Below, piece after piece: positions 1,914 to 35,340 of a stretch of 35,340 bases of DNA; the first letter of the stretch is position 1, and each line of letters starts with the position of its first letter. The DNA comes from Chrysochromulina tobinii (Eukaryota), in assembly GCA_001275005.1 (NCBI GenBank), contig JWZX01002690.1:1-35340 (forward strand). Reading direction: 5' to 3'. The position numbers and the translations under genes were made by a program. The notes beneath the pieces are model-generated. The model saw only the letters and a list, made by a program, of their open reading frames with translations. It had not been told where the DNA came from and did not search any database.

Positions 1914-2512
1914 GTGGCGGCAACGACTTCCACAGACATACCATGATCCCATGAGCGCTTCATCGCATCATTCAAAGACTCATGCTTTATTGCGATTGCG
2001 GATGGTCGTAGCCGCCGCTCTATTAAACCAAAAAACGTACAGCCAGGCCCACGTGGATGTGCACTGGGCTGACTGTATAAGGGGGGCACCATTGGGCACA
2101 CCCTCTCCAGCAACGAACAGTGTGCCCCTGTCGCTGGTTCTTTTTCCTTGGGGGGCATGGGAGGCCGGTCACGTGAACTATCGGCCGGGGGCCGATAGAT
2201 GTAGCGTGGCCGGGACGGGGGTGGGGGGCCGGATCCTTGATAATCCTCGCCGGTGTGTTAGTCCACCGAGCGACGCGACCGCTGCGTGGCAGTGTTTCGC
2301 GTGGTAGTGGCTGGTCGGTACCTTGTGTGTCGATTCAACTGACCCTTTCTCAATCTTGTGGGCAAAACATGGGTCATGATGGACGCGGCGACCAAATAGG
2401 TCGTTGGCATTCGTATTGCTATCCATCTAGGCGGTGCGAACTACGAAGAGAGTGCGGTCGGGGAGGACGTGCCTGACGTGCACGGCGAGCCGCGCGTCAA
2501 CGGTGCGGTCAG

Positions 2513-4357
2513 ATGAAGGTCCTGATCATATGGCTCCTTTTTCCTCTGTGCCGCACCGACACGACCATTGTCCACAAGCGCCACTGCTCTTTCGAGCACC
2601 GAACCAAGGTCCGGGATTGCACGCAGAACCGCAACCGGCACGATTGTGAGGCGTCACGCATGGGCAGCACACTGGACGTATTCCAAACGTGCTGGGACTG
2701 GGGACACAGCTGCCAGCCAGCCCGACGGATCTTGGCTGCAGGGCTGGACGGCAACATGACGCGGCAACGATTGGCATGGCAGATTCGGAGTCGGCTGCAG
2801 CAGTGCCCCCAGGATGCACCTGTGCGGACCCTAGAGGCGAAGTTTGCACAGGAGGAGTGCTCGTCGTCAATGGAGCTGTGTGTCCGACGGCGCTACACAC
2901 GGCCCGCGCCGGTACAGCCAACATGGGGCAAGTATGGCTACCACGGCAAGCATTTTTCCAAATGGCTCGACGACTTTGAGCTCAGGCATCCGATGACGCC
3001 TCCGGTAGCGAAGACCAAGGGGTGGGAAGAGCCATACAAGGGGCTGACAGCAGCTCTCACTCCGGATGGGGCGGTGCTGCAAGGCGCCGAGGCCGACGAG
3101 GCGCTCTCCGCTCTGCACTTGAGTCGTCCCGTCGCCTACGGTCTCGTCATGATGTCGAGCCACCATCAAAAGGACCTGCAGTACAAGCAGTCGGCGGCGA
3201 TGCTCCGGTGGAGTGCGTCCGCCCTCGCGCACGTGAGCCAGCGGCCAGGGGGGCGTGGCCTCGGGCTGGCCGCACTGCTGCTGGTACACAACAACGCGGC
3301 CTGGAGTGAGAAGGAGCTGATCCGCATGCTGCAGTACTATGAGCTCGAAGGTCCACGCCAGATGCTCCGAATGCTCGTGCGTCCGACGGTGAACATGGGC
3401 TACCTGTGCGGTGAGCTCTCCATCCTCGCCCATGTACTCCTCTCCCATCTACTCTCATGATTCGTCCATCTACCGCACAGGTGAGCTCTCCATCCTCGCC
3501 GCAACGGCCTCGATGTGGGCGCACTTCCCTTGGGTGCTGTACAACAGTGGCCCCGACGCGGTCCTGACCCCGTACGGTGCGACCGCCTTCGCGAATTGGA
3601 TGGAGTGGGTCGAGCCCGGCTGCGCGAACACGACGGCATTCCTCGGCGGCCGCTTTCAGGTGTGATGACGACTGATTGTATGCTGATGGGCCTCCCTCAC
3701 TGCATGCTGACCGCGAACACGACGGCATTCCTCGGCGGCCGCGTTCAGACACCCGAGCGCATCATGCAGGTCGTCCCTCACTTCGCCATGGACGTCTTCT
3801 TCTTTTGGCCTGCCAAGTTCCTCGAGGCCGGCCAGAAGGCGGCTGGCCAAGCCAATAAGGCGCCCCAGCCCATGGCGAGCTCGGGCAGGCGCTCGCCGTT
3901 GATCACGCCGTGGTTGAATGCGACACGATGGTGCTTGATGGGCTGGGCTCCTGACGAGCCACGGCCCGAGTCGACGACCTATGGGCCGTTCAACAATGAG
4001 ACGGACGAGATCTTCGCCCTTCCGGAGTATCTGCTCCACGAGATGCAGTTCAGATTCGATCTCGACTACCGCATACTGCCCGGCGGGACTGGATGGGGGA
4101 TCGCAGACTCAGCCCGGGTCCCCAAACCAGGGCAGCCCGGAAAGTTCGAGAACCGGCACGCTAAGGCCATTCCGTTCCCGAAGCAGACGTGTGCCAACGG
4201 CATCTGCGATGACTGGCACGGGATCTGGCATAGCCACTTTTGGCAGTCGGTTGAGGAATGGATGCACAACCTGAACCGCACGTTTGGAGGCGACGTGCCA
4301 TGGACGCACATGTTCGATGTCGACAAGACTCATCGCACGTACGATATTGTTACCTAG
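2513..4357 (+). CDS. Secreted hypothetical protein, 3 exons (2513-3410, 3481-3659, 3749-4357; 561 aa)
   Basis: Signal-peptide-like start MKVLIIWLLFPLC. Three overlapping ORFs join into one frame after removing two GT-AG introns (spliced length 1686 nt). Confidence 0.7.
3411..3480 (+). other. GT-AG intron (70 nt) whose first 20 nt equal the first 20 nt of the next exon
   Basis: gtgagctctccatcctcgcc occurs at 3411 and 3481. The intron ends in cgcacag and its removal restores the frame. Confidence 0.8.
3660..3748 (+). other. GT-AG intron (89 nt) whose last 37 nt copy the end of the upstream exon
   Basis: cgcgaacacgacggcattcctcggcggccgc(t/g)ttcag occurs at 3623-3659 and 3712-3748. Removal gives GGRFQ|TPERIM. 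Confidence 0.8.
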
Positions 4358-9676: not shown

Positions 9677-12600
9677 CTAGACGGCGACGGCGGCCTTGCG
9701 CGCGCGCACAAACTCCTCGAACTTTGCGCACGTGGCGAGAAAGTCGCCCGCGTGCGCCTCAGTATCGGCGATCACGGCGTCCCCGTCGACAATCTTGATG
9801 CGCATGTCGAGGTCGACGCGCGTGCATGCGGGGGTGATGGCCTTGGCCGCCGCGGCGGCTTCATATGCGGCGCGCTCCTCGGCAATCAGAGCCTCGACGT
9901 CCTGCACGAGCGCCACCAGCCATCAGAAAAAATCATCATTCTCAATTGGGGATCATCAGCGGCAATGAGCGCACCTGCTCGAGGAGGGACTTGTGATGAG
10001 GGACACACTCACGTGCAAGCAGAGGCAATCAGCACACCTGCTCGAGCATCGCCACCCACGCGTCTCCGGAGAGAGGCTTGCCAGTGAGCCGCTCGACCAG
10101 CCCTAAGAAAGGTTCCGAATTCCCGGGCCTCCAGTAGGCCTCGCGCAGCGTCGGGCCGATCTTGGGGTTGTCGACGAGTGCGCCGTCGCGTTCCGACAAA
10201 AAGGCGCGCGTCTGGTGAACGGCCATCTCGGCGAGCACGTACCCGTGGTAATAGCAGCTCGCTTCGTCAGAGAGCAGGTGGGGCACTGAGAGCAGCGGCC
10301 GGCCGCCGAGCCCGCCCTGGATCTCCTTCTCTACCTTATCGGCGAGGGCGAGCACCGACTGCGCGCTCAGCACGTCCTCCGGCATCTCATACCTGATGGG
10401 AGGAGGCAATCAAAGGGCCATCAGCCGCAATCAGCGGTCCATAGAAGCACTATCTGCAAGTACAGTGCCTTCTCAAAGTAGGGCCATCAGAGGTCATCAG
10501 AGGTCATCAGAGGTCATCAGAGGTCATCAGAGGCACTATCCTGCAAGTACAGTGCCTTCTCGAAGTAGGGCCATCAGAGGTCATCAGAGGTCATCAGAGG
10601 CACTATCTGCTCGTACAGTGCCTTCTCAAAGTAGGGCCATCAGAGGTCATCAGAGGTCATCAGAGGTCATCAGAGGTCATCAGAGGCACTATCTGCTCGT
10701 ACAGTGCCTTCTCAAAGTAGGGCCATCAAAGGTCATCAGAGGTCATCAGAGGTCATCAGAGGTCATCAGAGGCACTATCTGCTCGTACAGTGCCTTCTCA
10801 AAGTAGGGCACAGCGATCATGCCGCGCAGCGTGAGCACTTCGTACGGGTGCTTGGCGCGAACGTCCTCCTCGTGCAACTCGAAGGGGAGGGGCACGCCCT
10901 CGCGGCTGACGGCGTACCTGATGAGGGACGTCATCACACATGATGAGGCAGGCCATCAGAGCTCAGTAGGATGAGGCAGGCCATCAGGGCTGATGAGGCA
11001 GGCCATCAGAGCTCAGTAGGATGAGGATGGCGTACCCGGCGAGGGACGTCATCAGAGGCAATCAGAGGCCATCCACGCACTTGCACCGCCACGCCGCGTC
11101 GCCCACGAGGGAGTCGAGGAACATGGACTGCAGCTCGGCGTATGCGACCGAGGTGGGGGCGCGCTCTTGCGAGAAGAGAGGTGAGCGCTGACGGATATTG
11201 GCAAAGTGCGCCGCGTGCCCGGCCTCGTGCATCAGGGTCGTCAGGGCGGTGTGGCCGGAGCCGATCGCCGAAGGGTCCGCAAGGGAGGTAAAGTGGGTCA
11301 CTGTGGGCTGCCACGATCCGTCCGCGCGCACCTGTGGGGAAGGAGGTGAGGCGTCGTGGTGAGCACTTGCATGCTGGCTCACTGCGGGCTGCCTCGATCC
11401 GTCAGCGCGCACCCACGCAGGCTGCGGCCAGTGGCAGAAGCCGTTGGAGTACTTGCCCTTACGATCGAGCAGGTCGAGCGACATGCTCGCGCCTTCGTAG
11501 GAAATGCCGAGCGCCGAGAAGGAGCGTCCCCACTGTTCGATGGCCTTCTCGAAGGGGAAGTACGGATCGAGCTTCTTGGTGATGTCACCTGTGGGGACAG
11601 AGAGGGGGCGCCGTGGTGAGCACTCGCTTGCTGGGCGACGCAGGGAAAAGTACGGATTGAGCTTCTTGGTGGTCACCCGCCATCATGTACGCCGAGTTCC
11701 ACGGCTCCAGCGCCATCTCGCCCTTCTCCTTCGCGAGCCGTGCGCGCGCTGCCTGCATGAGAGGGCGCGTGCCCTTCTCGAGGGTATCCAGGATTTCGAA
11801 GAGGGCCGCCTTTCCAAACCCCTCGGCCTGCGTGACCTTGTAGTCGTAGTAGTCCACGTACCCGAGGGACTTAGCCATGCGATTGCGCGCCTGGACGAGA
11901 TCGACGCACCCGCTCAGAGGCAATCAAACGCACTCAAAATCAATCAGAGGCACTCCGATGCGCGCCTTGACGAGATCGACGAACCCGTTCGCCGTTACGA
12001 AGTCGCCGATGGTGCGCACGCCATCGTAGCATGCCTTGCGTGTACCTGATGAGGAAGGCAATCAGAGGCCATCAGAGGCAATCAGATGGTGCGCACGCCA
12101 TTGTAGCATGCCTTGGTGCATACCCTCCGCGGAATCGACCCTGATGGGGAAAGGTAAGCAGAGGCAACTAGCCTTGGCGCGCACCTTCCACCGGCTCGAC
12201 CCGCATCTTGTTGCGCAGACCCACGGACGAGAGCTCGACGAAGGAGCCGTCGATGGTCGCGCCGAGTTTCATCTTGTTGCGGGCGGCCTCGAGCGTCCCC
12301 TCGATCTTCATGCACTGCTCGCGCAGCACGAGCCCTTCAGGGTTCTCCATTATGTAACAGCCGAATGTGCGCTCGAACATCTTCAGTGTCTTGCGCTCGT
12401 CGTCCGTCAGGTCCGACGAGGCGAGGTACTCGCGCGTCTGCGCGAGCTTCTCCTTGGACGCGAGGAACGCCTGTGGCGGCGAGACTCGAGCGCGGCCGAC
12501 TCGCATGAGACTCGCATGCGACGCGTGCGCGCCAGTGTGGGTGAGTCTGAGCCGTACGACCTCCATCTCAGCCTTGGTGCGCGTGAGCTCCGGGACGGAG

Positions 12601-12890
12601 TACGCTTCACCGCCGAGCGCCATCTTCGTCCCCCAGAACTGAAGCTCGAAGGACTTGTGGACCTTCTCGTACTCGGTGTTGATCGTTTCAATGAAGGTGG
12701 TCGCGGCCGACATGGCAGAGGGGCTGTAAGACGGAGAATCGAGGCGCAGCGTGAGAGAGCGCAGCAACGGACGGCTGAGTTTGCGAAAGCTGCGCCACGA
12801 TTCGAACCGTGCCGAATACCGTGCTCTCTTCGAGGACATGCTCGCTGCGGAGAGGATCGCGGGAAAGACGCTTGACGCGTACAAGCGCAT
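9677..12890 (-). CDS. M3-family zinc metallopeptidase (oligopeptidase-like), 9 exons
   Basis: HEAGH (HExxH) plus downstream AELQSMFLD, and motifs DLLDRKGKYSNGFCHW and YYHGYVLAEM. Exons: 12713 (or 12890)-12561, 12470-12185, 12045-11966, 11890-11677, 11588-11413, 11331-11081, 10917-10789, 10392-10038, 9901-9677. This gives 622 aa from ATG 12713; the upstream ATG at 12890 would add 59 aa, possibly a targeting peptide. Confidence 0.88.
9902..10037 (-). other. M3 peptidase intron 8 (136 nt) with an internal CAG|GT junction at 9975/9974
   Basis: CTCGAGCAG|GTGTGC at 10037, a second CTCGAGCAG|GTGCGC at 9974, and acceptor GTGCAG|GAC at 9902. Confidence 0.75.
10393..10788 (-). repeat. M3 peptidase intron 7 (396 nt): array of exon-end/donor copies interleaved with (CATCAGAGGT)n
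   Basis: On the + strand, the unit gcactatctgc(tc/aa)gtacagtgccttctcaaagtagggc occurs 5 times, separated by 5, 3, 5 and 5 copies of the 10-mer. Splicing CT|GTACGA...ATCAG|G gives EKALYEMPED. Confidence 0.85.
10918..11080 (-). other. M3 peptidase intron 6 (163 nt), built of CTGATGGCC/CCTCATC repeats
   Basis: AA|GTGCGT...CCTCATCAG|GTAC. Splicing gives DAAWRCKYAVSR. Confidence 0.75.
11332..11412 (-). other. M3 peptidase intron 5 (81 nt, in frame): ~38-nt copy of the next exon plus acceptor cassette
   Basis: The ORF shows duplicated peptide VRADGSRQPAVS...VRADGSWQPTVT. Boundaries are TGG|GTGCGC and CCCCACAG|GTG. Confidence 0.8.
11589..11676 (-). other. M3 peptidase intron 4 (88 nt): ~33-nt copy of the next exon plus acceptor cassette
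   Basis: The intron starts GTGACCACCAAGAAGCTCAATCCGTACTT and the exon starts GTGACATCACCAAGAAGCTCGATCCGTACTT. The intron ends CCCCACAG. Confidence 0.8.
11891..11965 (-). other. M3 peptidase intron 3 (75 nt), GC-AG, flanked by duplicated exon sequence
   Basis: GTCGATCTCGTCAAG|GCGCGCA ... GTCGATCTCGTCCAG|GCGCGCA. The intron contains an in-frame stop, and splicing gives GFVDLVKARNRMAK. Confidence 0.7.
12046..12184 (-). other. M3 peptidase intron 2 (139 nt), compound
   Basis: GAAG|GTGCGC...CCTCATCAG|GTACAC. It contains an internal acceptor-like site (12141), a donor-like site (12123) and a copy of the next exon. Confidence 0.75.
12471..12560 (-). other. M3 peptidase intron 1 (90 nt, in frame), no obvious exon duplication
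   Basis: GAG|GTCGTA...CCACAG|GCG. Splicing gives KAEMEAFLASK. Confidence 0.6.
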
Positions 12891-19457: not shown

Positions 19458-20940
19458 TTACCACAGAGCCGGAGCATTGTCCCGCACCACGGCGAGCGGC
19501 GCGACAGCTGCGCCGGCGACGCCCCCCTGGACGACCCCATTCGCCTGAGAGCTCTCTTCGCCAGAGAGCGCATACTCGAGCTCTATGCGCCAAGCGGCAG
19601 GGAAGCGCGCGTCCTTGTGGGCACCGTCCACGTCCTCCTTGTACAGCGCGCCGCCATAAGGGAGCGGCTTGAGCATGCGTGCCAGGAAGCCAGTGTGCAG
19701 CGTCGCCCAGCCCAGCCTCTCCTCCGTCAGAAGGCCATTATTACTCAGGCGCAGCTCAAAGTCTCCGCGGAGGAGCAACCCGTCGCCAGGCAGCTCGAAG
19801 CGCACGGCCGGCTGGAAGGGCGCGCAGCGCACGGGGCCGCACGTGCAGATGGACGAGCGCAGCGTCTGGATGCCATCCGCGGTGGGAGACGCCGTCGTGA
19901 GCGCGAGCAGCTCCAATCTCAGATACCTGTGGGGAGAGAGGCGATGGCGCCGTGGTGAGCACTTGCATGCACCGACGGATCCAATCTCAGATACCATGGA
20001 TTGAGATCCAATCTCAAATCAGATTGAGATCCAATCTCAGATACCATGGATTGAGCAGCGAGTCGGCGTCCGCGCGCGGCGCGCCACTTGAGGCGAAGTA
20101 GGCGCCCGGCGCCGAGGAGAGTGTGACCGCCTTGAGCACGACCGTGGCGCCCTCGAGCAGCTGCGCGCGCCTCTCGACCCCCTCGCAGCGCAGCAACTGC
20201 TCGTACATGCGCACGCAACGCACTTGTGATGGCTGGTTGATGGCGTCGAGGTCCGTCGTGCGTGCGCTGCGGAAGAAGTGGATGGCTGCGTCGGCCGACG
20301 GGCACTCGGCGTGCCCGATGCGGAGCAGGAACGCGCACACCATCACCCCTGTGCGCCCCTTGCCAGCCTTGCAATGCACGGCTAGCACATTCGCCTGGTC
20401 ACCCTCCATGAACGCGTACGCACGATCGCAAAAGGCATCGAGCGCGCGCAGCGCGGGTGCGTGGTGATCGGCGAACGGGTAGCGCATGACGCGCACTGCA
20501 CCCGGCCAATCGGTGTCCAGGTAATCGCGCTCGTCGCACAAGTTCACCATCGCGTAGCGGCCGCCGTGTTGGCCATCCATGAAAGACCGCACATCCGAGA
20601 GCGGGTTGCGATACCACGACTCGAATGAGCTGCTCGGCAGCCCCAGCGCGATGACGCGCGGCACAATGTACGTCAGGTCGAGGTCGAAGGTGTCCGTCTG
20701 CGTGCGCCTCTTGGAGCCGGATACCAAGTGCCGCGCGACTCGGAATGGCACATCGGTGACGCCGGAGGCAACTGCGGTGAGGCTCTGCGTCCACGTGGCA
20801 TCCTTGTTGGAGCCCCTCGTCTCGAGTGCCTCGACCTCGAGTGACTCGATGCGTCGCTGCATCGGTTTAATCGGTGCGGCCGCGGCTGCAGCGCTGATTG
20901 GGATAAAAGAGACCGCAGCGCCGTCCTTGTGCTCCGCCAT
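19458..20940 (-). CDS. PTEN: PTEN-like phosphoinositide phosphatase with C2 domain, 2 exons (20940-20045, 19926-19458; 454 aa)
   Basis: Catalytic HCKAGKGRTG, plus LVS..KRR...FDLDLTYI.PRVIA.G.P, YRNP, FADHHAP and PSQ.R motifs. C-terminal C2-like region GDF...LHTGF...KEDVD.AHKD.RF. Confidence 0.9.
19927..20044 (-). other. PTEN intron (118 nt): patchwork copies of the exon junction plus acceptor cassette
   Basis: TG|GTATCTGAGATTGGA...CCCCACAG|GTATCTGAGATTGGA. Splicing gives LLNPWYLRLELL. Confidence 0.8.
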
Positions 20941-29746: not shown

Positions 29747-32700
29747 CTATCTCAGTGCGCGCGTGATCGAGAGCGCAATGAACACGGCCCACAGCACCAC
29801 GAAGAAGAGAGCGCTCAGCCACCTGGAGACCGGCGGACCGCCCAGTTCGGCGCCGAGCAGACGGCGGCGCGCAATGAGTGTGCCGAAGCACAGGCTTGCC
29901 ACGGCCAAGAAGATCTGAATTGAGTAAGCGAGGTCACCCGCGGGCACCACGAAGCTGACGGCCATCTGGGGCGTGTACCACGGCTCAGAGGAGTACCTGT
30001 CGCGCCACTCGGCCTCATGCTCCAGGCCATAGGAGGCCCAGTAGATGGCGGCGATCATCCAGGGCAGCCCGAGGCCGAGGTAGATGATGACGCTATTCGA
30101 GCCAGTGATGTTGGTAATGCACGCGTCCGCGGTAGGCTCGGTGGCGGCGGCGATGCGCGACGCAAAAGTGTCGGGCAGCGAGGAACCCATCGCGACAAAG
30201 GTCATGGCTGTCACCGATTTCGAGATGCCCAAGCAGCAGCCCATGTGGCTAGCGAGGTCGCCGACGAGCGCCGTGAGCAATCCAATGAGCACGAGCGTCA
30301 CGAGGAAGCACGACCAGCCACCTGACCACTCGGGCGGCGGCACAATGGCGCAGATGAGCTTCCAGGGCAGCGACAACAGCCACATCGCCATGGATCCCGG
30401 CCCAACTTCCGAGGGCAGCTGCACCGCCTCCTGGAACTGGCCTAGGTACGAGCCATCGCCGTGCTCGTGCTTCGCCTTGGGCTGCGGCGAGCTAAAGTCG
30501 AGCAACTGCACAAGCTCGTCCACGCGCGCGACACGCTCCGAGTCGGAATGGACGTGCACGACGGAGAAGATGGATGCTCGGCGCAGGCGCATGTTGCCGT
30601 CGGTGACGAACCGCGTCGCCTTCTCGCCCTTCTGCCCTGCGGCCGACGTGAGCACCACCTGGAAGTCATCGAAGCGGTGGTATGCACCTGTGTCTATGAG
30701 CTCCACCTCAATTGTCTTCGACACGACGCCTTCCTCAAAGACCATTCGGCCCGATCTGCCGACATAACCCTGGCCCGCGATCGAGGTGCCGTCGCGCGTC
30801 GCCCATTGGCATGCAATCGTCCCTTCACAGCCATGCGTGCGCAGCACTGATAACGTCACGCGCTGCGCTGTCTCACAGACATCGACCTCGCGTGAGTCTA
30901 AGTGTAACTCGCCCGGCCCGTCGTGGTCTTGAATGGTGACGTCGCACGTGGTCGTGGCGCCCAGACGGCAATGCTTCGGACAGAAGAGCTCGACGAAAAA
31001 GTGCTCATCGTTCTCCTCATCGTCGTCGTCGATGATCTTGACGCTGATCGTCTGGTGCGTGACGCCCGGTGCGAACACGATGAGGCCTTCAGCCTGAACA
31101 CAGTCGAGCTCAGCGCAACGCTCAGAAATAGGGGGCACTCAAAGAAACCACTCAGGGACGCACATCAGCAGAGAGAGACGCGCTGAGGGACGCTCCCAGA
31201 GACCAGGGAGGCATTCAAGGACGCACTCCGAAGAGCACTTAGGGACCATCAGTGGCCGTCGGCGCACATGCTCGAAGTCGACTCCGTCGGTGGCGGTGCC
31301 GCTCTTGGTACAGTACTCGACTGAGCATGCTCTGGACTTGTCGCCGTTGCGTACGATCGCGAGTGTCACGCTCCCTTGCCCCTCTCGGCAGACGCGCTTC
31401 GCCTGCGCCCACTGCACGCGGGTCTCGCCGCGCGCGTCCTCAACCGCGTTGCCCTCCCGCTCGAGGATGGTTGCGCGCAGAAGGCCAGCTTCGTCAAGCG
31501 CCTTGTTGCCGAGAGCGGCGTTCATCCCAGCCTTTCGGTAGTAGGCTTGCGACTGCGGCGGCAGCAGCATCGAGGCGACGGCGGCGAGCTGCTCGTCGCC
31601 CGAGAGCGTTTCGATGGACTTGAGTGCAAGCACGCGCGAGATGTCAGTCTTTGTGATCTGGCGCCCATCCTTGCCGTAGCCGATGGCCGCGGCCGCCTCA
31701 GCACTCTCAGCGTCATGAGCGGCGAAGACGGACGCCTCGGCGTCGGCCACATCTGCACGGTATGCCACGTACACGAGGAGGGGGAACATGACGAACGTGG
31801 TGACACCCTCCCACACATCGATGACATCGGGCGTGATGTACTCGAGTATGATGATGAGCCACACGTATCCAAAGATCGAGGCGACCCCGGTAATGTAGAA
31901 GACTGGAAGTGCCTTGATGGCGGTCTGGCCGCCGTCTGGGATGGCCGTGATGCACACAGCCGAGATGATGAGCATGTTGAAGGCAGCCGAGCCCACGATC
32001 GTCGACGGGCCGAGCTCGCCCGCGTAGAAGCCCGAGCTCACAATCTCGATGATCGAGAGCAGGATCTCCGGCGCGGAGGAGCCGAGCGCCATCAGCGTGA
32101 GGTTGGCGACCGTCCCATTCCACACGGTGACCGTATACCTTCGCACCTCGCCTGAGGGCAGCTCGATCGTCCTCGTCGTCTCCGTGGACGTGATTTGCTC
32201 GATGCCGGCCATGAAAACGTCCGCCGCGATCGCAATGCCCAGAAAGGTCCAGCAGAGCAGAGCCATGAAGAGGAGCGTGTTGCGCCCTGTGCGCGCGGGC
32301 CCATACAGTATCCAGCCGTCGGAGCAGTGCTCACCGCCGAGCTCCGGGTCCACGCGCGGATCGTTGAACCACTCTTCAAGGCTGTCGAATGCCGGCTCGA
32401 CGGCGCCCATGTCGAAGATTCCGATCTCGTTGGCGAGCGCGCCCAGCAGCAGCCCGAGCAGCAGCAGCAGCAGGCCGCAGCACGCGGAGGGAAAGATCGT
32501 GATCGTGGCCATCGGGGGCGTCTCCGGCCCCGACGGCGTCCCATCCGCACTCTCGCTCTTGAGCGCAGCGGCGGTAGGTGCCGCCTTGACGGACGGCGCC
32601 ACCTTGGCGGTCGGCGCCGCCTTGGCTGGCGACGATGGCTTCGATAGCGGAGGCATGGCCGCCGCCGTCGTGGCCGGCTGCATCGCCTTTGAAGAAGTGC

Positions 32701-32935
32701 CCGACGGCGCGCTGCAGGCCGTGGTCATGTACCGTGCGTATGGTGACTGCGTATCGCGTTCACAAGCGCCCTGGGTGGCAGCATGGGGCACGTTGGCACC
32801 AGCAGCCCATGATCCGGATTCAGTGCGCTGCTTATCGAGGAGCAAATCCTCGTCATCGGGGGTGATCGGGCTTCTTGACGGCTGCTGATGCGAAGCGGAG
32901 CTGCCCGACGTCCGCGTAGATCCCCAGCGCAGCAT
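29747..32935 (-). CDS. NCX: Na+/Ca2+ exchanger (SLC8/NCX family) copy A, 2 exons (32935-31268, 31093-29747; 1004 aa)
   Basis: Alpha-1 repeat VWNGTVANLTLMALGSSAPEILLS..GPSTIVGSAAFN, two Calx-beta domains, and alpha-2 repeat GSSLPDTFAS..GSN. The 174-nt intron CAT|GTGCGC...TTCAG|GCT restores the frame. Confidence 0.92.
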
Positions 32936-35340
32936 CAGAAAGATCGCGCGCCGATTGGCGGCCGCGAGTGATCTGACCACGCGACCGTCATATGGGGCGT
33001 ACGCCAAAAATTACCTGCCAAAAATTACCCCACTTCCAAAATGAAATAGTGATTGAAATCTCATCTCCGTGCCATGAATTCTGGGTACGAACTGTAATTT
33101 AGAGAATAATTGCCAGAGGCGCCGATTTTTTTTGATCTTGCCACTCACCGCTCCCAGGCACGCGCAGTACACATGTACCGGATAGCATGGAAAGGTGCAT
33201 ACATGTATGGCCCCCGGGGACAAGTAGGTGGACTCTCTGACAGTGCCTGTAGACCTAAAACTGTCTCCCCGTCTTCGGCCCGCTGTGACATTGTTATAGT
33301 GACATTGTTCATTGTTATAGTGTTTGCTGCGCTGAGTCTGGTGCCTCTGTGCGCTCTGCGCTGCGCCCGCTGCGTGAGTGCACGTGGAGTTCTTTACTAC
33401 GTGGAGTAGCGAAAAACGAAGTAAAATCGAAATTTGTCACACGATTATGGCCTCGAAATTTCGAAGATCTAGAGTCACCCCGAATGAGGGTCCTAGTCGG
33501 GTCTCAACTTCGTCCAAAAAAGGTGGCTACTTTTTTTGGCGGCATCATCAAGAGGTCTCCAACATGACGGAGTGTGTCCAAGCGCACTCGCGGTTGCCAA
33601 TCGGTGCGCGATCTTTCTGATGCTGCGCTGGGGATCTACGCGGACGTCGGGCGGCTCCGCTTCGCATCAGCAGCCGTCAAGAAGCCCGATCATCCCCGAT
33701 GACGAGGCGTTACTCCTAGATAAGCAGCGCACTGAATCCGGATCATGGGCTGCTGGCGCCAACGTGCCCCACGCTGCCACCCAGGGCGTTTGTGAACGCG
33801 ATACGCAGTCACCGTACGCACGGGACATGGCCACGGCCTGCAGCGCGCCGCCGGGCACTTCTTCAAAGGCGATGCAGCCGGCCACGACGGCGGCGGCCAT
33901 GCCTCCGCTATCCAAGCCATCGTCGCCAGCCAATGCGGCGTCGACCGCCAAGGTGGCGCCGTCCGTGAAGGCGGCACCGTCCGTCAAGGCGGCGCCGTTG
34001 GGGCCGGAGACGCCCCCGATGGTCACGATTCCCTGCCGCCTGCTGCTGCTGCTGCTGCTGCTCGGGGTGCTGCTCGGGCTGCTGCTGGGCGCGCTCGCCA
34101 ACGAGATCGGAATCTTTGACCTGGGCGCCGTCGAGCCGGCATTCGACAGCCTTGAAGAGTGGTTCAACGATCCGCGCGTGGACCCGGAGCTCCGCGGTGA
34201 GCACTGCTCCGACGGCTGGATACTGTATGGGCCCACACCCACAGGGCGCAACGCGCTCCTCTTCATGGCTCTGCTCTGCTGGACCTTTCTGGGCATTGCG
34301 ATCGCGGCGCACGTTTTCATGGCCGGCATCGAGCAAATCACGTCCACGGAGACGACGGTCACGATCGAGCTGCCCTCAGGCGAGGTGCGAAGGTATACGG
34401 TCCACGTGTGGAACCGGACGGTCGCCAACATCACGCTGATGGCGCTCGGCTCCTCCTCGCCGGAGATCCTACTCTCGATTTTTGAAATTGTGGGCTCGGG
34501 CTTCTACGTGGGCGAGCTCGGCCCGTCGGCGGTCGTGGGCTCGGCTGCCTTCAACATGCTCATCATCTCGGCTGTGTGCATCACGGCCATCCCTGACGGC
34601 GGCCAGACCGCCATCAAGGCACTTCCAGTCTTCTACATTACCTTTTTCGCCTCGATCTTTGGATACGTGTGGCTCATCATCATACTCGAGTACATCACGC
34701 CCGATGTCATCGATGTGTGGGAGGGTGTCACCACGTTCGTCATGTTCCCCCTCCTCGTGTACGTGGCATACCGTGCAGATGTGGCCGACGCCGAGGCGTC
34801 CGTCTTCGCCGCTCATGACGCTGAGAGTGCTGAGGCGGCCGCGGCCATCGGCTACGGCAAGGATGGGCGCCAGATCACAAAGACTGACATATCGCGCGTG
34901 CTTGCACTCAAGTCCATCGAAACGCTCTCGGGCGACGAGCAGCTCGCCGCCGTCGCCTCGATGCTGCTGCCGCCGCAGTCGCAAGCCTACTTCGTAAAGG
35001 CTGGGATGAAAGCCGCTCTCGGCAACAAGGCGCTTGACGAAGCTGGCCTTCTGCGCGCAACCATCCTCGAGCGGGAGGGCAGCGCGTTGGAGGATGCGCG
35101 CGGCGAGACCCGCGTGCAGTGGGTGCAGGCGAAGCGCGTCCGCCGAAAGGGCCAAGGGAGCGTGACGCTCGCGATCGTACGCAACGGCGACAAGTCCAGA
35201 GCATGCTCAGTCGAGTACTGTACCAAGAGCGGCACCGCCGCCGACGGGGTCAACTTCGAGCATGTGCGCCGACGGCCACTGATGGTCCCTAAGTGCTCTT
35301 CGGAGTGCGTCCTTGAATGCCTCCCTGGTCTCTGGGAGCG
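31191..35340. repeat. Large inverted duplication: arms ~31191-32991 and ~33564-35340, AT-richer spacer of ~570 bp
   Basis: Reverse-complement alignment by eye. Homology begins at ATGACGG on both sides and continues to the window end. Confidence 0.9.
33620..35340 (+). CDS. NCX: Na+/Ca2+ exchanger copy B, partial (exon 33620-35263; intron from 35264 runs off the window)
   Basis: Inverted near-identical copy of copy A, with an open frame from ATG 33620 (MLRWGSTRTSG...) to FEH|gtgcgc. It is missing from the ORF track because no stop occurs before the window end. Confidence 0.85.
   Translation, partial: MLRWGSTRTSGGSASHQQPSRSPIIPDDEALLLDKQRTESGSWAAGANVPHAATQGVCERDTQSPYARDMATACSAPPGTSSKAMQPATTAAAMPPLSKPSSPANAASTAKVAPSVKAAPSVKAAPLGPETPPMVTIPCRLLLLLLLLGVLLGLLLGALANEIGIFDLGAVEPAFDSLEEWFNDPRVDPELRGEHCSDGWILYGPTPTGRNALLFMALLCWTFLGIAIAAHVFMAGIEQITSTETTVTIELPSGEVRRYTVHVWNRTVANITLMALGSSSPEILLSIFEIVGSGFYVGELGPSAVVGSAAFNMLIISAVCITAIPDGGQTAIKALPVFYITFFASIFGYVWLIIILEYITPDVIDVWEGVTTFVMFPLLVYVAYRADVADAEASVFAAHDAESAEAAAAIGYGKDGRQITKTDISRVLALKSIETLSGDEQLAAVASMLLPPQSQAYFVKAGMKAALGNKALDEAGLLRATILEREGSALEDARGETRVQWVQAKRVRRKGQGSVTLAIVRNGDKSRACSVEYCTKSGTAADGVNFEHVRRRPLMVPKCSSECVLECLPGLWE

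Follow-up and report, generated by a model that had tools for sequence, protein, structure and literature searches.

Where new spliceosomal introns come from on a large scale is a long-standing question. The available sections of a recent survey present introners as the sole mechanism able to explain bursts of intron gain (PMC12130899). In the parts accessible of two studies, the introners of Symbiodinium and Polarella (classes 4/5, 6/8/10) supply their own 3' splice site, the 5' site coming from a target-site duplication (TSD), which is fixed per class at 3-8 nt (10.1101/2022.06.06.494994, 10.1101/2020.10.14.339549). Introner family 5 of a Chrysochromulina sp., a haptophyte, is described in the available text of Gozashti et al. 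(2022) as lacking terminal inverted repeats (TIRs), having 4-bp TSDs and carrying its 5' site. Direct repeats at or in new introns are also known from Daphnia neointrons (PMC4202315) and from AGGT tandem genomic duplication (PMC3443670), which, in the sections available, represent parallel gains of unrelated sequences.

Here we analysed a 35,340-nt stretch of the haptophyte Chrysochromulina tobinii (the window) together with related contigs, in which many introns consist of a short copy of a neighbouring exon plus a shared 10-base repeat with its acceptor, and new introns likely arise from pasted intron ends. As in the Symbiodinium and Polarella introners, so far as their partial accounts go, the repeat provides the acceptor and a duplicated host GT the donor, one orientation is favoured and the mRNA is unchanged. 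In contrast to their short, fixed TSDs, the host copies here are variable and 10-63 nt long, and the arrays further differ in having no TIRs, no full-length identity, tandem 10-mers, repeat rounds and sharing between neighbours. Taken as introners in the broad sense, they have sequence common to many unlinked introns but lack end-to-end similarity, with locus-specific 5' parts. A DNA-transposon introner of the MITE type fits poorly, since the copies spread continuously from 10 to 63 nt instead of forming a fixed short TSD, the 5' ends of the inserts vary, and the inverted CTGATG/CATCAG lies internal to the 3' end. Chrysochromulina family 5 likewise has no TIRs, but the 10-mer introns carry the 3' end and a long duplication, a contrast drawn from the available description of that family only. 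The direct repeats of host sequence at the inserts are as expected of neointrons made by double-strand break (DSB) repair or template switching. Such repeats, repeated bouts at one site and splice sites drawn from duplicated exon sequence, as in one window intron (11891), are shared with the Daphnia DSB-repair neointrons and the AGGT duplications. The haptophyte case differs from both, as far as they are described, in involving hundreds of loci with the same acceptor tail, apparently copied from introns. The literature searched held no account of this architecture in haptophytes, and the available parts of PMC12130899, PMC4580454, PMC12480563 and PMC8469720 do not describe it; the family may already be listed in the introner supplements.

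RNA-confirmed introns of a peptidase gene

Most window matches to the 10-mer lie in introns of an M3-family peptidase gene (Table 1). PF01432 is found in homologs of its product, whose translation has an HEAGH motif, and 554 of the 622 residues are identical to P0004. Among named homologs, that of Emiliania huxleyi is the nearest (91% over one exon), which marks the host as a haptophyte; GC content is 62%, against 63.4% in PMC4580454. A protein alignment against five homologs has no gap at any of the eight coding-intron junctions. All eight coding introns are spliced out in RNA contigs; together with the 5' UTR intron this gave nine joints in the RNA runs and none in the DNA run X1, and ten more spliced joints were read in locus L038. 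Removal from RNA at GT/GC..AG is as expected of U2-type spliceosomal introns.

The first-pass annotation had proposed acceptors at 10393, 10918 and 12046, all of which exist and are used: RNA contigs of three runs join 10788 to 10393, 11080 to 10918 and 12184 to 12046, and DNA run X1 has none of these joins. The internal site that it placed at 12141 is an AG inside the 139-nt intron, unused by the RNA joints listed; we ruled out its use as an acceptor with a 17-nt microexon, as the joint skips the whole 139 nt. Three further introns, those starting at 10037 and 11965 (both RNA-confirmed) and at 3660 (predicted, the frame opening on removal), contain the 10-mer words as it reported.

Table 1 Genes, introns and junction copies located in the window
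Feature	Position	Strand	Observations
M3-family peptidase gene	9677..12713	minus	622 aa; nine coding exons; spliced ORF open
5' UTR intron of the peptidase gene, 96 nt	12724-12819		RNA-confirmed; no array, no exon copy
Coding intron	12560-12471	minus	RNA-defined
Coding intron, two-round, 139 nt	12046..12184	minus	RNA-defined (RNA joint)
Junction copy, 56 nt	12085..12141	minus	Local alignment, junction -18 to +38
Coding intron, GC-AG, 75 nt	11891..11965	minus	RNA-defined (RNA joint within 9-nt ambiguity)
Coding intron, 88 nt	11589..11676	minus	RNA-defined (RNA joint); other tail family (GTGCTCACCAC..CCCCACAG)
Coding intron, 81 nt	11332..11412	minus	RNA-defined (RNA joint); other tail family
Coding intron, 163 nt	10918..11080	minus	RNA-defined (RNA joint); CTGATG-type units; 3' end CCCTCATCAG
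Coding intron, 396 nt	10393..10788	minus	RNA-defined (RNA joint); 3' end CCCATCAG
Coding intron, 136 nt	9902..10037	minus	RNA-defined (RNA joint); degenerate units; own 5' junction copied at 9983
Predicted intron of another gene, 89 nt	3660..3748	plus	Frame opens on removal
Predicted intron, 70 nt	3411..3480	plus	Perfect 20-nt next-exon copy at start; unrelated tail

Elsewhere in the window, two near-identical gene copies lie head to head as an inverted duplication (29761-32971 on the minus strand and 33588-35340 on the plus strand). The duplicated gene resembles a sodium/calcium exchanger, a putative label read off the sequence, and an intron of it at about 31116-31270 holds a degenerate TGAGTGC-type array.

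A genome-wide, sense-biased intronic repeat

Matches to CTGATKRCCTC with at most one mismatch number 28 in the window against 2.76 expected, a count reached in none of 100 shuffles, and 25 of the 28 lie on the minus strand within RNA-confirmed peptidase introns. The family described in the first-pass annotation as CTGAT(T/G)GCCT is thus a real repeat, although its commonest unit is instead CTGATGACCT (14 of 22 perfect window units), which occurs 457 times in all loci listed against 316 and 282 for other unit types. DNA reads cover the arrays at a depth of 18,069, compared with about 40 over single-copy bins, so the repeat is genome-wide. An intergenic bin of the window (2002-2668) also stands out, with a depth of 4529 in DNA run X1 against about 40, and therefore contains another high-copy repeat.

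A scan of metagenome contigs yielded at least 136 loci, from which 11 redundant loci were dropped and L051 was trimmed before counting; the analysed set comprises 637 kb of related contigs including the window. Strand and compartment were called by a self-trained 3-periodic HMM rather than from annotation, and this roughly reproduced the RNA-confirmed gene. Among the loci listed, 261 arrays have at least two units: 178 are sense and 6 antisense (hence 178 of the 184 strand-called arrays are sense), 9 lie in opposite-strand gaps, and 68 at contig edges carry no strand call. By eye, at least six of the nine in opposite-strand gaps end in CATCAG or CATTAG acceptors. The 52 unselected arrays, those lying over 2 kb away from the hit by which their locus was chosen, show the same pattern, with 48 sense, 0 antisense, 3 at edges and 1 in opposite-strand gaps (42 kb). 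Counted by compartment and strand, the arrays are therefore intronic and sense-biased, and are not equally abundant in intergenic DNA and on both strands; the sense-strand bias claimed earlier holds. That they are almost missing from intergenic gaps may point to a link with transcription or splicing. Sense units lack AG and contain stops in every frame, whereas each antisense unit has two AGs but is free of stops, so some of the strand bias can be put down to selection.

Five antisense arrays lack a terminal acceptor (L002:8267-8529, L070:8400-8420, L014:988, L032:9435 and L035:1151), and in three of the six antisense cases a direct repeat of 18-34 nt flanks the array. Because antisense runs are stop-free and CATCAG-rich, translation may pass through them in frame, or splicing may use the AGs that they contain. 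The double 10-mer had 0 matches in viral contigs, and telomere-repeat introns were rejected as family members, five loose matches containing no true (CCCTAA)n array.

The arrays converge on a shared 3' end. Across the 637 kb, 175 CATCAG acceptors among the loci listed have a common 30-nt consensus, CTGATGACCTCTGATTGCCTCCCTCATCAG, and only this 3' part is shared. Units are ordered along the array, with TTG in 61 of 104 last units and TGA dominant further upstream. In 86 of 110 terminal acceptors (loci listed) the A of the last CTGAT lies at position -17 relative to the AG, a branch-point-like position that fits the role earlier suspected for this word. Pairing between CTGATG and CATCAG, also suggested at that stage, fared less well: it appears in the minimum free energy (MFE) structure of two of the three array introns folded, and a terminal hairpin as a selected structure was rejected, as none of the three exceeds shuffles (z = -0.56, -1.78 and +0.25). 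A third common end, TTGCATGCAG, follows 10-mer arrays at L011, L016, L025, L042, L050, L069 and L038, and the other tail family is also headed by GCATGC; UGCAUG is the RBFOX motif.

Copies of flanking exons within the introns

The first-pass annotation viewed the repeat as a strand-biased intronic microsatellite. It overlooked the main feature, namely copies of the flanking exon junction within the introns; a target-like duplication of the host exon accompanies the arrays, which are therefore more than an intronic microsatellite. Exon-start copies were counted over the 110 of 175 CATCAG acceptors that are terminal (loci listed). The exon that follows starts with GT in 86 and GC in 12 of these (98 of 110 together), with the consensus GTRCG. 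A copy of the next exon start lies upstream of 53 of the 110, against 1.6 in shuffled pairs, and 57 have no detectable copy. The 53 copies are 10-63 nt long (median 26) with a mean identity of 96%, and the inserts of 27-352 nt are mostly array. In 40 of the 53 the outermost copy is preceded by non-array sequence; joining at those copies leaves the reading frame intact in 30 of 39 cases, and in every one of the 18 with both frames clear (p = 2.6e-9). The other 13 come after an earlier acceptor or array, the pattern to be expected if the 3' junction of an old intron were duplicated.

A flanking direct repeat accompanies 72 of 175 sense arrays (loci listed) against 4.7 of 219 control pairs, and a crude sort of the 72 gave 27 next-exon copies, 10 across AG|GY, 9 previous-exon copies and 26 unsorted. 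The other tail family has the same exon-start copy in 12 of 24 cases versus 0 in the control. Of 19 RNA-confirmed introns, no more than three open with a clear copy of at least 17 nt; two of these belong to the other tail family and one is a CCTCATTAG variant. Several RNA-confirmed introns (10788, 10037, L038:6475 and L038:7723) have one of their own junctions, 5' or 3', copied inside them, which is what local duplication of introns already in place would also produce.

Where copy and array meet flush, microhomology of at least 2 nt is seen in 11 of 17 joins (p = 7e-4); 23 of the 40 scorable joins have 1-12 nt of filler, and microhomology over all 40 is non-significant (p = 0.43). The filler of 18 inserts held no convincing foreign exon piece carried over from a donor intron. 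Three loci contain a tandem run of five to six [exon start + array + AG] modules (L008:13190-13550, L016:4420-4756 and L032:10070-10335), and each internal AG|GT in them could be a recursive splice site.

Individual window introns illustrate the range of these structures. The two-round intron consists, 5' to 3', of a degenerate 14-nt exon-start copy, a first tail with the AG at 12141, the 56-nt copy, an array and CCTCATCAG; in the 56-nt copy the upstream exon end and downstream exon start are contiguous, without the intron, as in an intron-less gene. The GC-AG intron has a 7-nt copy of the next exon start, an array and a 25-nt copy of the previous exon end, and a duplicated exonic AG|GC is the source of both its splice sites. 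Judged from their layout, these two introns argue for gain. In the 396-nt intron, the end of the upstream exon together with the start of the intron is copied four times (10723, 10637, 10571 and 10484; exon original at 10809), and these copies alternate with CCTCTGATGA arrays. Likeness to the next exon start is short in the 163-nt intron, at about 5-8 nt only. Both introns of the other tail family in the peptidase gene open with a 38-nt next-exon copy, identical at 34 of 38 positions in the 81-nt intron. In the predicted 89-nt intron, degenerate units come first, and the end of the previous exon, copied over 37 nt, then supplies the AG. A further intron of the other tail family, at 19929-20046 (minus), contains 18 nt copied from the next exon as well as an internal exon-junction copy.

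Local sharing of tails and changes in array length

Rare 12-mers are common to 8 of 60 same-strand acceptor pairs at most 3 kb apart, against 74 of 3604 pairs across loci (permutation p = 2e-4; p = 0.006 over 5 loci); these variant-sharing tests used 36 of 126 sequences, and the rare 12-mer was the second measure tried. Mean tail similarity between neighbours was borderline (p = 0.058). Local sharing is clear in L063 and L038 and weak in L028: L063 has three introns with one unusual tail before unrelated exons, two of them, 2.7 kb apart, having up to 53 exact terminal bases in common against 23 in the best other locus, and L038 has three introns with another common tail. For most inserts a local match is no closer than a distant one. 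Array density is about twofold higher within 2 kb of another array, and orientation is the same by 23 to 1.

Five overlapping locus pairs were aligned, and these showed no presence/absence of an intron, only a change in array length; between L004 and L049 it differs by 60 and 10 nt. In those two loci the array sits within a segment bounded by CCAAAACAC-type repeats, and the two versions differ in array length and in a replaced middle part, possibly a mobile element.

Origin of the introns

We favour, with a probability of about 0.58, a reading in which template switching pasted the 3' end of an existing intron, an array terminated by CCTCCCTCATCAG, into an exon and duplicated 10-60 bases of the target. 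As no intron-less allele or ortholog was seen, we infer the gain. The long, variable target duplication would supply the donor, and template switching is the probable route. An exonic DNA end would switch template to the array of an existing intron, sometimes a neighbour in the same orientation; copying would run through the AG and return a few tens of bases upstream, typically at GT or GC. The duplicated GT would then act as donor and the pasted end as branch point and acceptor, so that the old mRNA would be restored exactly. Slippage by 10 bases would alter array length, more rounds at one junction would produce nested introns, and selection would help to maintain the sense orientation because only antisense units contain AGs. 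Counting against this pasting reading, a DNA-level switch alone leaves the near-absence of arrays from intergenic gaps unexplained. The 57 acceptors without a copy, the few clear starting copies among RNA-confirmed introns, the 13 copies after an earlier acceptor or array, the mixed microhomology, the borderline similarity of neighbouring tails and the lack of a closer local match for most inserts weigh against it too.

More tentatively, the replicator could be the intron 3' end itself. Copying of the branch point and acceptor module, transposon-free and coupled to transcription or splicing, would then proceed into exonic GTRCG proto-donor sites, often from a source in the same gene, with the target duplicated and the event repeatable at one junction, amounting to ongoing, protein-neutral intron gain at genome scale.

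Hallmarks of non-LTR insertion are variable TSDs and 5' truncation, and the fixed 3' end with variable 5' length and variable TSD-like copies seen here matches them. This would suit a non-autonomous, SINE-like introner acting in trans by target-primed reverse transcription, with a fixed CCCTCATCAG 3' end, a variable 5' end and the GT of its variable TSD co-opted. The ordered units (TTG last, TGA upstream) also agree with such an element, and known introner families, in their available descriptions, bring the 3' site with them and use the TSD as the source of the 5' site. It is nevertheless unlikely: the 110 ends show no poly(A), and there is no TIR and no end-to-end identity; an unrelated second tail family and unique tails bear the same copy; variants are common to neighbours; and the unselected arrays include 0 antisense among 48 strand-called and only 1 of 52 in opposite-strand gaps.

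Less likely still, the introns are old and their 10-mer is a minisatellite that is favoured because it offers a branch-point signal free of AG; it would drive local duplications across splice junctions already present, the old 5' part being deleted later. The 13 copies that follow an earlier acceptor, the RNA-confirmed introns with copies of their own junctions, the visible slippage and the absence of AG from sense units, against two in antisense units, are all in keeping with this. Emiliania huxleyi, likewise a haptophyte, reportedly has intronic tandem repeats of similar period (10-11 bp), which Read and colleagues are said to have treated in 2013 as a matter of composition, without connecting them to exon duplication or to the gain of introns. 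But in 40 of the 53 introns the old part would have to have been deleted exactly as far as the copied GT, both sites of the GC-AG intron come from duplicated exonic AG|GC, the 56-nt copy is intron-free, and identical long tails in separate introns require copying between introns.

Finally, iterative de novo addition of 10-mers at staggered breaks by a telomerase-like reverse transcriptase or polymerase theta, with ATCAG as a fold-back of CTGAT, which comes closest to the synthesis proposed in the first-pass annotation, is very improbable and less likely than copying of intron ends with slippage: the short unit, the flanking duplication like that of a staggered break, some microhomology, the terminal inverted CTGATG/CATCAG and a few acceptor-less antisense arrays with flanking repeats (three of the six antisense cases) fit it, but the unit-order gradient and the locus-specific variants that some neighbours share speak against a single fixed template, the hairpin is not above shuffles, and the non-repetitive second tail family is left unexplained.

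Implications

Pasting of intron ends would be a variant of known routes of intron gain, with introner-like action but without a fixed TSD, TIRs or end-to-end identity. The repeat also misleads gene callers, since its antisense reading is stop-free and a translation of the repeat matches 254 database proteins. Near-perfect footprints of intron formation are kept in many of these introns, 24 of the 53 exon-start copies being 100% identical, and RNA and DNA runs for the organism already exist. Together with the misfit to a fixed-TSD transposon, these footprints make the repair or template-switch route to new introns directly testable.
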